Shown: piece after piece, positions 54,049 to 62,910 of the stretch
Position numbering within the stretch: position 1 is the first letter of the stretch
Layout: every line of letters begins with the position of its first letter
Origin: Bacteroidaceae bacterium
GTDB taxonomy: Bacteria; Bacteroidota; Bacteroidia; Bacteroidales; Bacteroidaceae
Direction: 5' to 3'
Assembly: GCA_017556585.1 (NCBI GenBank)
Contig: JAFYMP010000044.1
Span: 26,463-90,462, forward strand
DNA length: 64,000 nucleotides
Made by a program: the position numbers and the translations under genes
Notes under the pieces: generated by a model
Databases searched by the model: none
Seen by the model: only the letters and a program-made list of their open reading frames with translations
Told to the model about the DNA's origin: nothing

Positions 54049-55386
54049 ATGAAGATTGTAATAGCAGGAGCCGGCAATGTTGGTACCCATTTGGCAAAAC
54101 TTCTTTCGGGCGAGAATCAGGATATTATTCTTATAGACGATGATTCCGAAAAGATTAACCGTTTGGATTCCAATTTCGATCTTCTTACTATAGATGCATC
54201 ACCAACATCTTTCGTAGCACTGCGTGAAGCGGGAGTGGAAAAAGCAGACCTGTTTGTAGCAGTGACACCCGACGAAAGCACTAATCTTGTAGCTTGTCAG
54301 CTTGCCAATGCACTTGGTGCAAAAAAGACTGTGGCAAGAATAGACAACTACGAATATATGCTCCAAAGGAATCGCGATTTCTTTACAAAGATGGGCATAG
54401 ATTCGCTCATCTATCCGGAACTGCTTGCCGCAAAAGACATTGTAGATGGCATGAAATTAAGCTGGATTCGCCAATGGTGGGAATTTGCAGGTGGAGCACT
54501 TGTCTTAATGGGTATAAAACTTAGAGAGAACGCACAAATTCTGAATACTCCGTTCTATATGTTAGGTAGCAATCTACCATATCATATAGTAGCCATACTT
54601 AGAGACGGACACACTATCATCCCGGGCGGTAAGGACGTAATTCTTGCTGGCGACTTAGTCTATTTTATGACTATGAAAAAGCACATTCCTTACATCAAAA
54701 AAATAGCAGGTAAAGAAGAGCTGCCTGATGTAAGAAATGTCATTATAATGGGTGGTAGCAGAATAGCAGTCAGAGCATCACAGTTGATGCCAGACTATAT
54801 GAACTTAAAAATAATAGAAAGTGATATAGCCCGTTGCAACAGATTAACCGAACTTGTAAGCAGCAAGGTGATGATTATAAATGGCGATGGTAGAGATTTA
54901 AGTTTGCTTAATAGTGAAGGCATTGACCATACAGAGGCATTTATTGCATTAACCGATAGTTCAGAGACCAATATTCTGGCTTGTCTTGCAGCCAAACGTT
55001 TAGGCGTTACAAAGACTATTGCAGAAGTTGAGAATATTGACTACATAAGTATGGCCCAGAAATTGGATATAGGCACCGTAATCAACAAAAAGAAGATTGC
55101 CGCAAGCCATATTTACCAGATGTTGTTAGATGCTGACGTAAGCAACTTTAAATGCTTGACCTTTGCAAATGCCGATGTTGCAGAGTTTAACGTAAGACCG
55201 GGAGCAAGGATAACAAAAAGTGCAGTTAAGGATATAATGTTACCACGTGGTGTTACCATAGGCGGACTTATTCGTAACAAAGAGGCTATTCTGGTAACAG
55301 GTAATACAAGAATTGAAGCAGATGACCACGTAGTGGTATTCTGTCTGGAAGGTATGATTAAAACAGTAGAAAAGTTTTTCATTTGA
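54049..55386 (+). CDS. trkA: Trk potassium uptake system NAD-binding subunit
   Basis: 445 aa. Duplicated RCK/TrkA-N domains (IAGAGNVGTHLA; IMGGSRIAVRA). Confidence 0.93.
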   Translation: MKIVIAGAGNVGTHLAKLLSGENQDIILIDDDSEKINRLDSNFDLLTIDASPTSFVALREAGVEKADLFVAVTPDESTNLVACQLANALGAKKTVARIDNYEYMLQRNRDFFTKMGIDSLIYPELLAAKDIVDGMKLSWIRQWWEFAGGALVLMGIKLRENAQILNTPFYMLGSNLPYHIVAILRDGHTIIPGGKDVILAGDLVYFMTMKKHIPYIKKIAGKEELPDVRNVIIMGGSRIAVRASQLMPDYMNLKIIESDIARCNRLTELVSSKVMIINGDGRDLSLLNSEGIDHTEAFIALTDSSETNILACLAAKRLGVTKTIAEVENIDYISMAQKLDIGTVINKKKIAASHIYQMLLDADVSNFKCLTFANADVAEFNVRPGARITKSAVKDIMLPRGVTIGGLIRNKEAILVTGNTRIEADDHVVVFCLEGMIKTVEKFFI

Positions 55387-56843
55387 TACACTTAAGACTC
55401 ATAGAACGAATTGTTGGTATTCTGCTTCTTATTGAAGCGGGAATACTAATGCTATGTTCCTCTATACCACTCATTTATAAAGAGGACGATTTCTTTGCAT
55501 TCATAATATCAGCCTTAATTACAGCATGCGCAGGTATGTTGTTTATTGCAACGGGAGGTTCAAACAGACAGAGAGAGGTATTGACCCGTAGGGACGGATA
55601 TATTGTAGTCAGTATTTCATGGATTATCTTTTCTCTATTCGGCGCCCTGCCATTTTATATAAGTGGTTACATACCTAACTTTACAGATGCATATTTTGAA
55701 ACAATGTCCGGATTCACCACAACAGGTGCAACCATTATTAACGATATAGAGATTGTTCCACACGGTTTACTCTTTTGGAGAAGCCTGACCCAATGGATTG
55801 GCGGTTTGGGTATTGTATTCTTCACGGTAGCTGTACTACCTATTTTCGGAATAGGAGAAGTACAACTCTTTGCTGCAGAAGCTACCGGTCCAAAACGTGG
55901 TAAACTACACCCCAGAATAAGCGTCAGTGGTAGATGGATTTTGATAGTATATCTTCTTATTACCATACTGTGTACTATCACTCTGAATATCTTTGGAATG
56001 AATTTCTTTGATAGTATCAATCACGCATTATGTACTGCTGCCACAGGTGGTTTTTCTACAAAAAATGCAAATCTTGCATTCTACGAATCAAAAGCTATAG
56101 AGAATACAATAGCATTCTATATGTTACTATCGGGTATAAATTACGGATTGCTATTTGTTGCTATCTTTAAAGGAAACATCAAAAAGATTATAGATGATAC
56201 CGAATTCAAATGGTACATAGGAATAACATTATTATTTGCATTATTGGTTGCCAGCAGTCTGTTTGCTTCTAAACAATATGGATTTGCAGAATCTATAAGG
56301 CAAGGCCTGTTCAATGTTATATCTATTATCACCACTACAGGATTCACCATAACAGACTATACCCTTTGGCCTCCATTCATTTGGATGATACTTGGTTTTT
56401 GTATGTATTTTGGTGCATGCGGTGGATCTACATCGGGAGGTGCCAAGATTATCAGAATTACCATTTTGATTAAAGCCATGCGTAATGAATTCAACAGAAT
56501 TCTACATCCAAATGCTGTATTACCCATAAGAATAAGCGACAAAGTTTTATCGTCTTCCATAAAACAGAGCGTGCTTACATTTATCATCTTTATGATTGCC
56601 ATTGTCTTTGTTGGATGGTTCTTCTACATTGCAATAGGCCTGAATATCACCGATGCTTACGGCACATCGTTGGCATGTATCAGCAATATAGGTATTACCA
56701 TAGGCGACCATGGTTGTAACATTTCGTGGGACGATATGCCAACCATAGGTAAATGGTTTTCTACCTTCTTAATGCTGATTGGACGTTTAGAGCTATTTGC
56801 CGTTCTCATTCTGTTCACACCCGCATTCTGGAAGCACAGATAA
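55383..56843 (+). CDS. trkH: Trk-type potassium transporter membrane subunit
   Basis: 486 aa. TrkH selectivity-filter-like MSGFTTTGAT, TGGFST and TTTGFT repeats. The track start is a TTG overlapping the trkA stop by 4 nt, so the exact start is uncertain. Confidence 0.88.
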   Translation: MIHLRLIERIVGILLLIEAGILMLCSSIPLIYKEDDFFAFIISALITACAGMLFIATGGSNRQREVLTRRDGYIVVSISWIIFSLFGALPFYISGYIPNFTDAYFETMSGFTTTGATIINDIEIVPHGLLFWRSLTQWIGGLGIVFFTVAVLPIFGIGEVQLFAAEATGPKRGKLHPRISVSGRWILIVYLLITILCTITLNIFGMNFFDSINHALCTAATGGFSTKNANLAFYESKAIENTIAFYMLLSGINYGLLFVAIFKGNIKKIIDDTEFKWYIGITLLFALLVASSLFASKQYGFAESIRQGLFNVISIITTTGFTITDYTLWPPFIWMILGFCMYFGACGGSTSGGAKIIRITILIKAMRNEFNRILHPNAVLPIRISDKVLSSSIKQSVLTFIIFMIAIVFVGWFFYIAIGLNITDAYGTSLACISNIGITIGDHGCNISWDDMPTIGKWFSTFLMLIGRLELFAVLILFTPAFWKHR

Positions 56844-57845
56844 AGCATCGCTTTCTTTCATATCCAAAAGGATGCGTACATCGCTACGCATTCTTTCGTA
56901 TAGCTCACAATCTCTATAATGGGTATTCTTGCGTATTGCATCGTGCAGACTCATTTGACTGTGTCTGTAAGAGCTTAGCTCATTATTTAATTGTTCGGTA
57001 TGAATAGCATATTTATAAATTTCCTGTTCACGTTCGGTAATAAGTGACGAACATACAGGCGACAACACCTTATTTATTATACACTCTAACATAGAATGTC
57101 CCCTAATAAACAGATAAGTATTATCTTCATTTACGCCTAACTGCTTTAATTCTGCAGATAAACGTCCAACCTCTTCTATAAAATCAGAATAGTTTCTTTT
57201 AAGATATGCTATCTTCTTTTCTACACGTATAGATAAAAGAGACAAAGAATGATTCGGATCTTTTACATTGATTGTCTTCAGATTAACATCTTTACAGAAA
57301 TCCAATATGCTATATTGATTATGCTTTTTAGCACCGTAGAACCAGACGCTCCATACAAAAAGAGGATAAACTATTTGGGAGTAGAGTTTAAAGAAGACAT
57401 CAAAATCTATTACCCTTCTATCGTTCAAAGTACACTGCACACAGATATTATGCAGACTTTCTGAATAACATTTGTAGTTCTCTATTGCATAAGCATAGGT
57501 ATGCAATATAAATGGATTCTTAATTATTTGAGTAGAGGTTTCAGTCTTTCCTTGCAGTAGATAATCATAATCACTATCCACACAAGCTATCATATTCTTT
57601 CCTAATGCACACTGCTGCAAGCAAGACCTAATAGCCGATTTCTTTCCTTTTACCAAACTTGTACGAGAAGGAAGCATTATCTGAAAACATCTTGTTTCGT
57701 CTTCAAATTCTTCAAGCAATAGGCGCCAGAAAGCTATATCATCGTAGCTCTCAACGTAGGCAACTATTCTCTGTTTTTTACCAGAATAAAACTTATTCAG
57801 TGCCGCTACATACCTGGAATTTACATTATCTGTCAGCCTTTTCAT
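56793..57845 (-). CDS. DUF4435-like (OLD/TOPRIM-related) protein, putative nuclease partner of the upstream ATPase
   Basis: 350 aa. Conserved acidic pattern IVAYVESYDDIAFW, then ACVDSDYDYL (DxD), then HTYAYAIENY, as I recall for DUF4435/TOPRIM-like proteins. The ATG overlaps the ATPase stop (ATGA). The last 51 nt are antisense to the trkH 3' end. Confidence 0.6.
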   Translation of the reverse strand: MKRLTDNVNSRYVAALNKFYSGKKQRIVAYVESYDDIAFWRLLLEEFEDETRCFQIMLPSRTSLVKGKKSAIRSCLQQCALGKNMIACVDSDYDYLLQGKTETSTQIIKNPFILHTYAYAIENYKCYSESLHNICVQCTLNDRRVIDFDVFFKLYSQIVYPLFVWSVWFYGAKKHNQYSILDFCKDVNLKTINVKDPNHSLSLLSIRVEKKIAYLKRNYSDFIEEVGRLSAELKQLGVNEDNTYLFIRGHSMLECIINKVLSPVCSSLITEREQEIYKYAIHTEQLNNELSSYRHSQMSLHDAIRKNTHYRDCELYERMRSDVRILLDMKESDALSVLPECGCEQNENGK

Positions 57846-58663
57846 TGCACAGTTATGTCATCTACCTCTGTAACCACATCCATCCAACCGTCCATAATAA
57901 CAGCAGGAGAATGGGTTGTCAGAATGATTTGAGCATTTGGATTCATAGTGCGTATTGCCGATATCAATTTCTGCTGCCATTCTATATGCAGCGAAACTTC
58001 CGGTTCATCCATAAAAATTGCACAAGGCTTCATATCCTGTACAAGCAGTGTCAGTAAGATAACCAATAGTTGTTTTTCACCCGATGACAGACTATATGGC
58101 AACAATTTCACGCCGTTCTGATCAAAAAGTATCTCATTACTGTCACGTACTATTTTCTTTCCTGTTTCAGCAAACATAGAATCAACAAAATCAAGGAATT
58201 CTTTCTTCTTTGCCGATGTCTGCTGAGCTAAAAGAATTTTATCGGGAGTACCTGAGGTCAGCAATTCTATTGTTCGGTTACCTATGTTAACCTGATAATC
58301 CAGGTATCTTCTTTGCAATTTATATATCTGCCAATCAAGTTCCGATACAACATTCCTGTCTGCCATTTTCTCCAACAGATTACTGTGCATCAATGGTCTA
58401 TCCACACATCTTATTACATCGTAGGCAATTATCTCTGCTTCCGGCGGATAAAAGTTAATCTTAACATCTGTGCATTCATCATCGCTATTCCCCGACAAAT
58501 AATCCAGTCTGGAAACAGCTTTATTCAGAATAGTACTCTTACCGGCGCCATTCACACCACTTAATATATTTATATCGGGACGCAATTCCCATATAATATG
58601 CTTGATACCCCACATAGATTTAATCTCTATGCTGCTTATTCTTTCTGCCTGAATTTTGCCCAT
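57842..58663 (-). CDS. small ABC-type (AAA_15/21-like) ATPase
   Basis: Walker A GVNGAGKST (58532-58558), ABC signature LSSGEKQ, Walker B/D-loop IFMDEPEVSLH, and H-loop TTHSP. The track ORF starts at TTG 58693. I prefer the ATG at 58661-58663 (MGKIQAERISSIEIK). Confidence 0.75.
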   Translation of the reverse strand: MGKIQAERISSIEIKSMWGIKHIIWELRPDINILSGVNGAGKSTILNKAVSRLDYLSGNSDDECTDVKINFYPPEAEIIAYDVIRCVDRPLMHSNLLEKMADRNVVSELDWQIYKLQRRYLDYQVNIGNRTIELLTSGTPDKILLAQQTSAKKKEFLDFVDSMFAETGKKIVRDSNEILFDQNGVKLLPYSLSSGEKQLLVILLTLLVQDMKPCAIFMDEPEVSLHIEWQQKLISAIRTMNPNAQIILTTHSPAVIMDGWMDVVTEVDDITVQ

Positions 58664-58782
58664 AGTGATGCAATTTTTAGAATGTTTCCCCAAAAGTAAA
58701 AAAAGAAATCAACAATTAGACACAAAACAGATATAACTTTCTGCTTTAATTCAATATTTAGTGTTCTATAAAAGTAAAAGGA

Positions 58783-59859
58783 TTATCTAGATTTCAAATC
58801 TTCCTTAGTCAATGCTTGACAAGATTGAATAAGGTATTGAGATTCACTACCTACTATCAAGCCATTGTTATCATCATTGAAACAACTATCATATACATTG
58901 TGTCCGCCTTCAGATGGTTTTATTTCATTAGTTCTTGCTACAACAAGCCCTGTAAGCACCTTGTTATTATCATCCGATTTACCGGGAACAACCAGTCCAG
59001 AGTTTGTACATTCATCTATCGATGCCACTTCAAAAGCACAAGCTGCAATACCACCGGTCTCTACACTTCCTGATTCAACCGTAGCTCCTATAATTTTTCC
59101 CTTATTATGAGAATTAATCATTGTACCCTCGCATATTGCAACAAGTCCGGCAGCATAATGCCTTGAACTTTCTACTATTCTGCCTCCTACAACTTCCCCT
59201 TCGTTTACACAATCCTTCATTGTAGCTTTATGAAGAGTTCCGGTCAAACCTCCAATACTAATGTTTTTGGTTGCTCTTGAAGGTCCTACTACCTGACCAA
59301 AATTTTTACAATTTATAATATCTGCATCGGCCCTTCCAACAACAGATCCTATATATGTTGTAAACTCCGACGATATATTCGATGCATCGATCTTTGCAGA
59401 CATGTTTAAATTTGAAATTGAACCGAATTGTACATATCCAAAGAAACCAAATACATCGGCATCAGGTTTTGCAATTAGAGTACCTGTAATTGTATGTCCA
59501 TTACCATCAAAATTACCCTTAAATCTGCGCGACCTGCTTCCTACCGGTTCCCATCTTGTTTCGGCTATTATCAAATCGGTTTCCAGACGTATATATTCGC
59601 TCTCAAAGTTTTTACCTAACTTTACTTGTTCTGCGAAATATTTAAATTGTTCTGGCGAAGCTATTACGTATGGTTCGGAAGAGGTTCCATTACCTTTTTC
59701 AAAGGTTTTTGCCATAGTTGTTTCATTATTCAGAACGCACTCTGAATCTTCTCCTGAATTATTGGGAGAGAAACCTTCATTGCTGTTTGAACATGCAATC
59801 AGAAACAAACTAACCAAAATTAAACATTTTGCTAATGCAATTCTTTTTTCCATAACCAC
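58783..59859 (-). CDS. GLUG-motif lipoprotein
   Basis: 358 aa. Lipobox FLIACS. RFKGNFDGNGHTITGTL followed by repeated G-x-x-G units (FGFFGYV, IGSVVGRA, IGGLTGTL, AAGLVAIC, TGGIAACA). This parallels the GLUG region of the 19391-22000 protein. Confidence 0.6.
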   Translation of the reverse strand: MVMEKRIALAKCLILVSLFLIACSNSNEGFSPNNSGEDSECVLNNETTMAKTFEKGNGTSSEPYVIASPEQFKYFAEQVKLGKNFESEYIRLETDLIIAETRWEPVGSRSRRFKGNFDGNGHTITGTLIAKPDADVFGFFGYVQFGSISNLNMSAKIDASNISSEFTTYIGSVVGRADADIINCKNFGQVVGPSRATKNISIGGLTGTLHKATMKDCVNEGEVVGGRIVESSRHYAAGLVAICEGTMINSHNKGKIIGATVESGSVETGGIAACAFEVASIDECTNSGLVVPGKSDDNNKVLTGLVVARTNEIKPSEGGHNVYDSCFNDDNNGLIVGSESQYLIQSCQALTKEDLKSR

Positions 59860-61671: not shown

Positions 61672-62910
61672 ATGAAAGATTTTGAAGCAATAAGAACAAT
61701 TGACTATAATTACAATCTACCGGACGAAAGGATTGCAAAGTTTCCACTTACAAAAAGAGATAGTTCCAAACTCCTCATTTATAATAGTGGCAAGATAAGT
61801 CACAATCTTTTTACTTCACTACCCGAGCACCTACCCTCAGGGGCTTTAATGGTATTCAACAACACTAAGGTTATACAAGCGCGTCTGCATTTTCGCAAAG
61901 AGCCTACAGGTGGTCCAAAATCGCAAGGAGCACTTATTGAGATTTTTCTATTGGAACCGGTATTTCCTGCAGACTATCAGCTTATGTTCACTCAAACAGA
62001 AGAGTGCACCTGGCATTGTCTGGTAGGAAATCTTAAAAGATGGAAAGAGGGCTCCCTCAAAAAGAATATCTCCATAGGAGCAAAAGAGATTTGCGTTACT
62101 GCAGAAAGAATAGAGTCTACAAACAACGGACATATTATAAAATTCAGATGGAATGGTAATGTTACTTTTGCAGAACTACTTGAAGCAACTGGAGAAATTC
62201 CAATTCCGCCTTATCTGAATAGAGAATCACAAGAGAGCGATAAAACCACATACCAAACAGTATATTCTAAAATTAAAGGAAGTGTTGCGGCTCCTACAGC
62301 AGGTCTTCATTTCACTGATACTGTTTTAGCCAATTTAGATAGTCACAATATAGAAAGAGAAGAGTTGACACTACATGTTGGCGCAGGCACATTCAAACCT
62401 GTTAAGAGTGAGAATATAGCCGGTCACGAGATGCACACAGAATACATTGTAGTCAAGAAATCCACTATTGAAAAGCTGATTGCACACAATGGTGAAGCAA
62501 TAGCAGTAGGTACTACATCGGTTCGTACGCTGGAAAGTCTATATTATATAGGTGTATATTTAAGTACCCATCCGGATGCGTCAGAAGAAGATATGCATGT
62601 TCAGCAATGGACTCCTTACAATAGCGAAAACAACAAACTGACCACTATTGAATCGTTGCATTACATATTGGACTATCTAAACAATCACAATCTGGACTCT
62701 TTAAAAACAAGTACCTGCATAATTATTGTTCCAGGATACAAATTCCATATTGTCAAAATGATGGTTACAAATTTCCACCAGCCACAAAGTACTCTCTTAC
62801 TGCTTGTGTCGGCATTTGTAAATGGCAATTGGAGGGAGATATACAAATATGCACTTGAAAACGATTTCCGTTTCTTGAGCTACGGCGATAGTTCTCTACT
62901 TATACCTTAA
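61672..62910 (+). CDS. queA: S-adenosylmethionine:tRNA ribosyltransferase-isomerase
   Basis: 412 aa. Motifs YNLPDERIAKFPL, GSVAAPTAGLHFT and VGTTSVRTLES. It is longer than the ~350 aa I recall as typical, because of internal insertions. Confidence 0.9.
   Translation: MKDFEAIRTIDYNYNLPDERIAKFPLTKRDSSKLLIYNSGKISHNLFTSLPEHLPSGALMVFNNTKVIQARLHFRKEPTGGPKSQGALIEIFLLEPVFPADYQLMFTQTEECTWHCLVGNLKRWKEGSLKKNISIGAKEICVTAERIESTNNGHIIKFRWNGNVTFAELLEATGEIPIPPYLNRESQESDKTTYQTVYSKIKGSVAAPTAGLHFTDTVLANLDSHNIEREELTLHVGAGTFKPVKSENIAGHEMHTEYIVVKKSTIEKLIAHNGEAIAVGTTSVRTLESLYYIGVYLSTHPDASEEDMHVQQWTPYNSENNKLTTIESLHYILDYLNNHNLDSLKTSTCIIIVPGYKFHIVKMMVTNFHQPQSTLLLLVSAFVNGNWREIYKYALENDFRFLSYGDSSLLIP

Follow-up and report, generated by a model that had tools for sequence, protein, structure and literature searches.

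In the PARIS system carried by the P4 satellite of Escherichia coli B185 (structures 8UX9 and 8V45-49), a Rad50/SMC-like ATP-binding cassette (ABC) ATPase, AriA, is encoded ahead of a TOPRIM nuclease, AriB. The nuclease is held as a monomer at the interface between AriA heads through its residues R28 and R31, and a phage trigger leads to an AriB dimer that cleaves tRNA-Lys; its two-metal TOPRIM site is formed by E26, D30, D88, E90 and E122 (PMC11464382), and the closest structural analogue of this active site is RNase M5 (PMC12409363). The four-helix coiled-coil bundle of AriA provides a coiled-coil interface, takes part in hexamer assembly and binds the trigger Ocr (PMC10802264; PMC11464382), and the system acts as a toxin-antitoxin pair in which AriA both neutralises and chaperones AriB (PMC10802264). 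Surveys rank PARIS among the commonest "second-line" defence systems in the human gut and detect it in 20% of gut metagenome-assembled genomes (MAGs), mainly from Bacteroidales. Here we describe an ATPase-nuclease gene pair of this kind in a 64,000-nt stretch of DNA from a Bacteroidaceae bacterium (contig JAFYMP010000044.1 of assembly GCA_017556585.1), the whole of which is called the window below.

Judged from its sequence, the pair is an intact and co-evolving combination of an ABC ATPase and a DUF4435 TOPRIM nuclease, belonging to a Bacteroidota branch of the 'PARIS' family (OLD-like class 4), and it is a chromosomal resident that has been inherited vertically since the Bacteroidaceae began, not an insertion. 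The evidence marks the locus as a distinct, minimal, vertically inherited variant that annotation tools would label ordinary PARIS. Much of the PARIS signal of gut Bacteroidales may stem from this one ancient, core-like locus.

The ATPase and its partner nuclease

Both open reading frames (ORFs) are intact and lie in tandem on the minus strand, with the ATPase gene (57842..58663) preceding the nuclease gene (56793..57845). They are coupled through a 4-nt ATGA stop/start overlap (57842..57845, minus strand), in which the ATG of the nuclease gene occupies 57845-57843 and the TGA of the ATPase gene 57844-57842; this arrangement, proposed in an earlier reading of the same DNA (the original prediction), was borne out by the ORFs. 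The junction differs among relatives, with anything between an overlap of 23 nt and a gap of ~100 nt, and the order of ATPase followed by nuclease is maintained. These are not chance ORFs: they have thousands of homologues, a ratio of nonsynonymous to synonymous substitution rates (dN/dS) of 0.03-0.07 against the nearest relative, and Pfam scores far over cut-off.

The first gene encodes a minimal Rad50/SMC-like ABC ATPase of 273 aa, classed as a short AriA by its Pfam and PADLOC matches and its AlphaFold2 (AF2) model. It was matched by Pfam AAA_21 (1e-21, 78.7 bits), AAA_15 (4e-17, 63.2 bits) and SMC_N (7e-12), and by the PADLOC AriA model PDLC04164 at 1.5e-55, with positions 3-251 of the 253 in the profile covered. 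The motifs of a ~273-aa minimal ABC ATPase that had been listed previously were recovered in the translation at the same places, all on the minus strand: Walker A GVNGAGKST (residues 36-44, including K42; 58532..58558), the segment running from the ABC signature LSSGEKQ (192-198) through Walker B IFMDEPE (216-222, including D219 and E220; 57998..58090), and, with the additional aid of a homologue alignment, the H-loop TTHSP (249-253; 57905..57919). Within Walker A, G36, N38, G39, G41, K42, S43 and T44 are invariant and V37 nearly so across 30 homologues. The columns from the signature to Walker B are also invariant in homologues, and this region aligns to AriA 366-437.

The AF2 model of the ATPase (confidence score pLDDT 81) comprises an ABC head with one two-helix hairpin (residues 108-163; 58175..58342, minus strand), whose helices span residues 108-136 and 140-163 in the AF2 secondary structure. 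In the model this hairpin is the sole insertion in the head, and it is predicted to lie at the position of the trigger-binding four-helix coiled-coil of AriA. Its first helix is almost invariant among homologues, and the hairpin is also conserved in a prophage-borne relative. The C-terminal tail (residues 254-273; 57842-57904) is predicted to be disordered, with pLDDT below 50. This tail contains the invariant residues M257, G259, W260, V264, V267 and I270, is conserved even in the prophage relative, and is a candidate partner-binding motif.

Structural searches with Foldseek returned PtuA, of Septu and retron effectors, as the top fold match of the ATPase (8e-10), followed by AriA (~2e-8), all of them much longer proteins. 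Identity as an ABC transporter subunit was rejected, as the NCBIfam transporter matches fell far under their cut-offs (for example 36 vs 255 bits); nor is the gene coupled to a permease, its partner being the nuclease. The N-terminus gave weak matches to the recF and SMC_N models.

The second gene encodes a 350-aa DUF4435 TOPRIM nuclease that Pfam, PADLOC and the AF2 model identify as a distant AriB relative. Its three acidic motifs, VESYDD (31-36), CVDSDYD (88-94) and AIENY (120-124), lie where they had been reported, and the DUF4435 identity then drawn from them was upheld by a Pfam match of 168.2 bits (3.3e-49, residues 26-272) together with conservation of the acidic residues. PADLOC AriB models matched at 5.7e-59 (PDLC02983) and 2.1e-35 (PDLC04165), and a search of NCBIfam gave no match. 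In the AF2 model (pLDDT 86), a TOPRIM fold at the N-terminus leads into a helical domain.

Each of the five acidic residues in the TOPRIM site of AriB has a counterpart at equal spacing, namely E32, D36, D90, D92 and E122 (coordinates on the minus strand). The pair E32...D36 (57738..57752) has the spacing of AriB E26/D30 and is invariant among close nuclease homologues (set A1). The motif D90-S-D92 (57570..57578) equals AriB D88/E90 and is invariant both in A1 and in a set of homologues at 23-42% identity (A3), and E122 of the ENY motif (57480..57482), which equals E122 in the SLENY of AriB, is nearly invariant in A1. In A3 the equivalents of the acidic residues are invariant, and for ENY this holds for the E and the N. 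The only meaningful fold match of the nuclease in the PDB, found with Foldseek, was AriB itself (8ux9_A; E-value 1.6e-3, probability 1.0, TM-score 0.40-0.44, 13% identity).

Likeness to PARIS and to other named systems

Like PARIS, the window pair is a cassette of two genes in which the ATPase precedes the nuclease; also shared are a Rad50/SMC-like ABC ATPase bearing an AAA_15/AAA_21 signature and a DUF4435-type TOPRIM nuclease with five equally spaced acidic residues. It differs in the size of the ATPase, which has 273 aa where the solved AriA has 464 aa, a figure lower than the ~580 aa assumed in the original prediction. The gap between Walker A and the signature spans ~150 residues in the window protein and ~327 in AriA, and the modelled ATPase has the conserved two-helix hairpin instead of the AriA four-helix coiled-coil bundle, so the earlier suggestion of a reduced ATPase subtype holds. 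Only the ends of the protein align to AriA (8-48 and 192-265, against AriA 5-45 and 366-437). The nuclease differs from AriB in its low similarity (13% identity and a TM-score of 0.4, with no sequence-profile link) and in the absence of the AriA-contact residues R28 and R31. Finally, the window pair is chromosomal, syntenic and vertically inherited, whereas the B185 system lies in a satellite/phage hotspot; the patchy, mobile or hotspot distribution typical of PARIS and other defence systems is not displayed by the window pair.

The published PARIS detection rule asks for adjacent genes with AAA_15 at >=32 bits or AAA_21 at >=27 bits, plus DUF4435 at >=27 bits (PMC9122126). Under this rule, applied in DefenseFinder (Rousset 2022), the two adjacent window genes score 63.2, 78.7 and 168.2 bits, respectively, and they also carry the AriA and AriB hidden Markov model matches by which PADLOC-DB v2 defines PARIS. 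Both DefenseFinder and PADLOC would call the locus PARIS. The short AriA class is already modelled in PADLOC, where PDLC04164 has 253 positions. A close AriB orthologue from Pseudoalteromonas pTHAF3_a (locus L110:3794-4726; 239 bits to 8ux9_A) matched neither Pfam DUF4435 (E <= 0.01) nor the PADLOC AriB models (E <= 1e-10), whereas Bacteroidaceae nucleases score 150-235 bits on the DUF4435 and PADLOC AriB models. The profiles of both databases are therefore centred on the Bacteroidota type and not on the AriB that was studied experimentally.

DefenseFinder calls of PARIS have been published for B. fragilis NCTC 9343 and B. thetaiotaomicron jmh43, at loci that may correspond to the one described here, and those reports treat it as ordinary defence, part of a 'second line'. 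The searchable literature held no statement that the Bacteroidales PARIS locus is syntenic, vertically inherited and core-like, and no mention of Rikenellaceae that keep only the nuclease.

AbiL had been named together with PARIS as the likely architecture. The PARIS half of that claim stood, with the PADLOC AriA and AriB models matching end to end and the scores falling within the detection rule, and the AbiL half did not. AbiL of Lactococcus is also an abortive-infection pair of a split ABC ATPase and a TOPRIM-type nuclease, but AbiLi scored only 51-54 bits on close relatives of the ATPase, vs 190-197 bits for short AriA, and was outside the best 25 PADLOC models for the window ATPase itself. 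No AbiLii model matched the nuclease at E <= 1, where the matches were to AriB models only.

Among the other systems that combine such domains, PtuA (Septu; effector of retrons Ec78, Ec83 and Eco7) is the best fold match of the ATPase, with a query-normalised TM-score of ~0.5, and falls in the same AAA_15/AAA_21 clan. It differs in its length of 375-550 aa, with long insertions, and in its partner PtuB, which is an HNH and not a TOPRIM nuclease. P2 Old, Gabija GajA (OLD classes 1-2) and fused AriAB likewise combine an ABC ATPase with a TOPRIM nuclease, but they do so in one polypeptide of Toprim_Old type, unlike the two ORFs with DUF4435 in the window; the AriAB and ATPase-Toprim models of PADLOC gave weak partial matches of 54-66 bits. 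RNase M5 is similar in its two-metal TOPRIM site and in being a chromosomal housekeeping enzyme, which matures 5S rRNA. It works without an ABC ATPase partner, no sequence or fold match to it was obtained for the window nuclease, and the likeness is one of function alone.

Inheritance of the pair within and beyond the Bacteroidaceae

In the window, trkH (55383..56843, plus strand) converges with the nuclease gene, and their 3' ends overlap by 51 nt (56793..56843, both strands), in agreement with the earlier observation that the last 51 nt of the nuclease gene are antisense to trkH. The part of the nuclease encoded in this overlap (residues 335-350) is weakly conserved and has low AF2 confidence. 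Loci were anchored on TrkH from 80 species-representative genomes, and in ~60 of them the pair was found downstream of dxs-trkA-trkH, including 21/21 rumen/horse Bacteroidaceae MAG species and most of Segatella/Prevotella; several of the loci without the pair were too short for judgement. The overlap with trkH measures 51-84 nt in all 21 rumen/horse MAG species loci (L009-L029). It is absent from most Prevotella/Segatella loci, where manA lies between trkH and the nuclease gene. At ~10 species loci the pair is missing within 8 kb of trkH, and EamA is absent there too. A clean deletion was rejected for these loci, since the joint loss of EamA points to rearrangement breakpoints, which are silent on whether the pair is dispensable.

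Divergence was compared across 56 species genomes that contain dxs, trkA, trkH and both genes of the pair. Distances of the ATPase correlated with the core-gene mean at r = 0.986 (relative rate 0.96) and those of the nuclease at r = 0.968 (relative rate 1.38), to be set beside 0.994 (0.96) for TrkA and 0.996 (1.22) for TrkH; each core gene against the other two gave r = 0.966-0.987. Pairwise distances of the ATPase and the nuclease correlated with one another at r = 0.96, and by these distances the two genes co-evolve. Values of dN/dS spanned 0.00-0.05 in the ATPase gene and 0.00-0.07 in the nuclease gene, in the range of dxs, trkA and trkH, and by this measure the pair is under purifying selection as strong as that on the three core genes.

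A neighbour-joining tree of the nuclease follows taxonomy, with bootstrap values of 97% for Bacteroidaceae, 100% for Prevotella, 94% for Bacteroides plus Phocaeicola and 100% for the MAG clade of the window. The GC content is flat over the pair (0.35-0.38, against 0.36-0.41 in its neighbours), and no integrase, transposase or tRNA gene is found beside the pair in the window. The original prediction had read the locus as an accessory insertion between core genes, a view that is overturned by the synteny, vertical inheritance, purifying selection and neighbour-like composition seen here. It had also stated that finding the pair at this position throughout the family, co-conserved in the manner of housekeeping genes, would speak against it, and this is largely what was found.

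Conserved gene order around the pair extends over the family, although the block in Bacteroides is another one than that at trkH and no less conserved. In B. finegoldii, B. fragilis and B. intestinalis the block reads A2M - DUF1573 - MeaB - EamA (minus strand), then ATPase - nuclease - MscS, and the divergent arrangement of EamA and the ATPase gene is common to Phocaeicola and Segatella. In another abundant gut lineage the trkH overlap is present, and the opposite flank of the pair holds an M20 peptidase gene, MATE and queA. Segatella species differ in how far trkH lies from the pair (1.1 to 4.9 kb), and one Segatella copri species (L031:10490-13470) has two genes inserted between manA and the nuclease gene, one of the RhuM family and one encoding a SocA/Panacea antitoxin domain.

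Two disrupted copies were encountered. The ATPase gene is split and trkH truncated in a single metagenome assembly (L002:9187-12429); a pseudogene reading was rejected for this locus, which carries small indels and is otherwise 99.8% identical to the window. The nuclease gene appears frameshifted in another single metagenome assembly (L093:8866-9928). Both frameshifts are probably assembly errors and not pseudogenes or decay.

Outside the family the pair occurs in varied surroundings. Tannerellaceae carry it amid metabolic genes, Arcicella (L104) in the order lysC - pair - serS with 8-nt gaps, and other lineages beside arginase or dus, the latter immediately upstream in one case (L101). In an uncultured lineage (L111:4082-6032) the pair lies within a bacterial microcompartment locus, in the order shell genes, aldehyde dehydrogenase, pair, EutN, RpiB, DeoC.

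When metagenomes were scanned with a diverse alignment of the nuclease, 80 loci were recovered, 18 of them with an ATPase partner. At the remaining 62 of 80 no ATPase relative was detected by a six-frame profile search (E <= 0.01) of the flanks, taken up to 6 kb each side, many of these contigs being shorter than such flanks. Exact-sequence look-ups assigned the solo nucleases to Alistipes finegoldii, A. dispar, other Alistipes and Tidjanibacter. Their context in the Rikenellaceae is conserved, with SUI1/yciH on the minus strand, the nuclease gene on the plus strand, and aspartokinase and an S9 peptidase on the minus strand, and the nuclease motifs are intact (VEGYED, CVDSDFD, TENY). These solo nucleases (L119-L194; for example L125:5893-6984 and L150:5926-7020) have a basic N-terminal extension of ~35 aa that paired proteins do not have. 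Long ORFs upstream of the nuclease gene in Alistipes (~990-1109 aa, on either strand, in high-GC loci) were considered as the missing ATPase and rejected, having no Pfam match. A sister locus (L113), with the order ybeY - mnmG - unknown gene - nuclease - ispG, also had no ATPase in its flanks, and its nuclease is catalytically intact. The Rikenellaceae nuclease without an adjacent ATPase offers a natural experiment on the need for the ATPase. Genes for tRNA, rRNA or translation appear to recur near the pair or the solo nuclease in independent lineages (serS, dus, ybeY-mnmG, SUI1, queA), a pattern that was spotted post hoc in ~10 contexts.

Function of the pair, rival explanations and adjoining features

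The explanation we favour, with a probability of somewhat under one half (about 0.45), is that of a resident ATP-gated TOPRIM nuclease of the PARIS family, encoded by a vertically inherited operon. By analogy with PARIS, a head-to-head dimer of the ATPase would hold the nuclease inactive, and a signal tied to ATP binding or hydrolysis would release it. The released nuclease would then cut RNA, most likely tRNA, and translation would be arrested. Since the ATPase has no variable domain for trigger binding and its hairpin shows strong conservation, the activating signal would more likely come from the host side, as a conserved perturbation (stress or a trigger of guard type), than from a phage protein that evolves fast. 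The pair may have an immune or stress role, and an anti-phage one is plausible. It is doubtful that the pair acts as a classical mobile defence system, since it has been passed on vertically beside the same core genes, throughout the Bacteroides/Prevotella family, at housekeeping-like rates. One possibility is that an abortive-infection module was domesticated in the Bacteroidales and now serves as a stable brake on translation, either of guard type or responsive to stress; this would be a rare fixed immune gene.

Relatives on mobile elements bear on this reading. Full-length relatives of both proteins are encoded by an opposite-strand moron that lies between structural genes (L196:6967-8996) of a real prophage, which has tape-measure, tail and major-head genes; they are a 339-aa ATPase and a 338-aa DUF4435 nuclease. 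The nuclease is 29% identical to that of the window (E 1e-43), and the ATPase shows 43% identity across a stretch of 194 residues that takes in both the hairpin and the C-terminal tail. A homologue in Methylovulum lies amid hypothetical genes near an S24 repressor. Together with the RhuM/Panacea context in S. copri, these two contexts are evidence for a conflict-type role in the wider short-type family.

A number of observations weigh against the gated-nuclease explanation. Sequence and position are conserved over family-level divergence, which is atypical for immune systems, and neither protein has a hypervariable region. Several lineages have the pair tightly packed and co-oriented with housekeeping genes (serS, dus, MscS), and the nuclease without an ATPase in Rikenellaceae and at L113 argues against obligate sequestration by the ATPase. 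The link to AriB is distant: the nuclease is just 13% identical to it, neither phmmer nor a 34-sequence clade profile found AriB among PDB sequences, and hhalign of the clade against the close AriB orthologue gave a probability of 0.25%. At the positions of R28 and R31, through which AriB contacts AriA, the nuclease has Y34 and I37, so these contacts are not conserved. Mobility also finds little backing, as tblastn of the nuclease against 50,697 phage genomes gave no match, nor did an AriA fragment against the same genomes, and a scan of 2.9 million viral contigs yielded five loci only, all distant. Plasmid matches at ~50% identity, the only close ones, were rejected as evidence for mobility, being chromosomal fragments with normal Bacteroides synteny. 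Finally, no phage-resistance experiment on the short subtype was found in the searched literature.

The plasmid entries concerned are PLSDB records with chromosomal synteny (L097, NZ_OY725943.1, B. finegoldii 'plasmid 41'; L098, OY726067.1, P. massiliensis 'plasmid 93'). They look like mislabelled chromosomal contigs of fragmented assemblies.

The main rival to a gated nuclease is a housekeeping RNA enzyme, in which the DUF4435 protein would be a constitutive ribonuclease for maturation, turnover or quality control of tRNA or rRNA, comparable to the TOPRIM enzyme RNase M5 with its role in 5S rRNA maturation, the ATPase would be an accessory for loading or regulation, and the mobile PARIS effectors would be offshoots of the cellular enzyme. 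We regard this as unlikely on balance, while giving it serious weight. Such an enzyme would account for vertical inheritance at core-like rates with dN/dS of 0-0.07, for the fixed synteny in Bacteroides, Prevotella and Rikenellaceae, and for a hairpin that is conserved and not variable; against this, all characterised AAA_15/AAA_21 ATPase-nuclease pairs and all the best fold matches of the ATPase are conflict systems, and a full-length relative is carried by a prophage as a moron. The Rikenellaceae nuclease, alone beside SUI1/yciH with its catalytic residues intact, fits a cellular enzyme well. Frequent neighbours from tRNA/rRNA metabolism (serS, dus, ybeY-mnmG, queA) point the same way, though this apparent enrichment is the post hoc one from ~10 contexts. 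The ~10 species loci without the pair within 8 kb of trkH are harder to reconcile with a housekeeping function, with relocation being as likely as loss. The AriB catalytic site itself resembles that of RNase M5 (PMC12409363).

If the annotation transfer from PARIS proved wrong, the pair would be a cellular RNA enzyme. Taken to the level of the clade, the proposal would make the Bacteroidota DUF4435 proteins a cellular ATP-regulated TOPRIM ribonuclease acting on tRNA or rRNA, a housekeeping relative or ancestor of mobile PARIS, which we hold to be doubtful. Were it true, Rikenellaceae would have dispensed with the ATPase, the abundance of 'PARIS' in the gut would largely be an annotation artefact, and the dominant gut phylum would possess a new RNA-processing enzyme.

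It is improbable that the pair is a selfish addiction module, in which loss of the ATPase would free a lethal nuclease and which would have become fixed without net benefit to the host. PARIS does behave as a toxin-antitoxin pair (PMC10802264), and the window genes are tightly coupled and co-evolving. Addiction leaves unexplained, however, both a purifying selection like that on dxs and trkA over family-level divergence and a stable position across families, and Rikenellaceae hold the 'toxin' without an adjacent 'antitoxin'.

We see very little prospect for a complex of DNA repair or genome maintenance, whether after the pattern of RecF plus RecR or after that of a DNA nuclease of OLD type. 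RecFR likewise combines an ABC ATPase, RecF being a minimal one, with a TOPRIM protein, and the window ATPase has core-like conservation and weak recF and SMC_N matches at its N-terminus. The sole structural relative of the nuclease, AriB, nevertheless cleaves tRNA, the TOPRIM domain of RecR is non-catalytic whereas the window nuclease retains all metal ligands, and no repair genes were present in any neighbourhood examined.

The original proposal of a mobile accessory PARIS/AbiL anti-phage module recently inserted at the end of trkH is barely credible: the domain architecture with its PADLOC and Pfam matches, the variable GLUG lipoprotein gene next door (present in L009 and L011, absent in L010) and the lack of terminator space between the pair and trkH would suit it, but the pair and its 51-84-nt trkH overlap recur in 21/21 related MAG species loci at core-like divergence, syntenic orthologues exist in Prevotella and Bacteroides, GC is flat, no integrase, transposase or tRNA gene adjoins the pair, and AbiLii gave no match.

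The remaining features concern the borders of the pair. The upstream ORF can be read from a TTG start (57842..58693, minus strand, 283 aa) or from the ATG at 58663, which gives the 273-aa ATPase. The ATG is the likely start codon, because the resulting length fits that of homologues (272-278 aa) and because the TTG falls within a candidate Bacteroides-type -7 promoter box, TACTTTTG (58691..58698, minus strand), read by eye 28 nt upstream of the ATG. This box fits TAnnTTTG, which we take to be the Bacteroides -7 consensus. From its position inside TACTTTTG, the TTG is unlikely to be used as a start codon. A sigma-70 promoter scan, which is unsuited to Bacteroides promoters, found fewer sites than in shuffled controls.

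A terminator-like hairpin with a T-rich tail lies at 56872-56891 (minus strand), within the nuclease gene towards its 3' end and just short of the overlap with trkH. Terminator-like sites in the region number 3, against 1.3 +/- 1.2 in shuffles, and are possibly due to chance. On the other side, the GLUG-repeat lipoprotein gene (58783-59859) adjoins the ATPase gene. Beyond it lie MATE and queA, whose order and orientation shift between clades while the ATPase-nuclease pair remains with trkH; queA is found a few kb from the pair both in the window (61672-62910) and in relatives.

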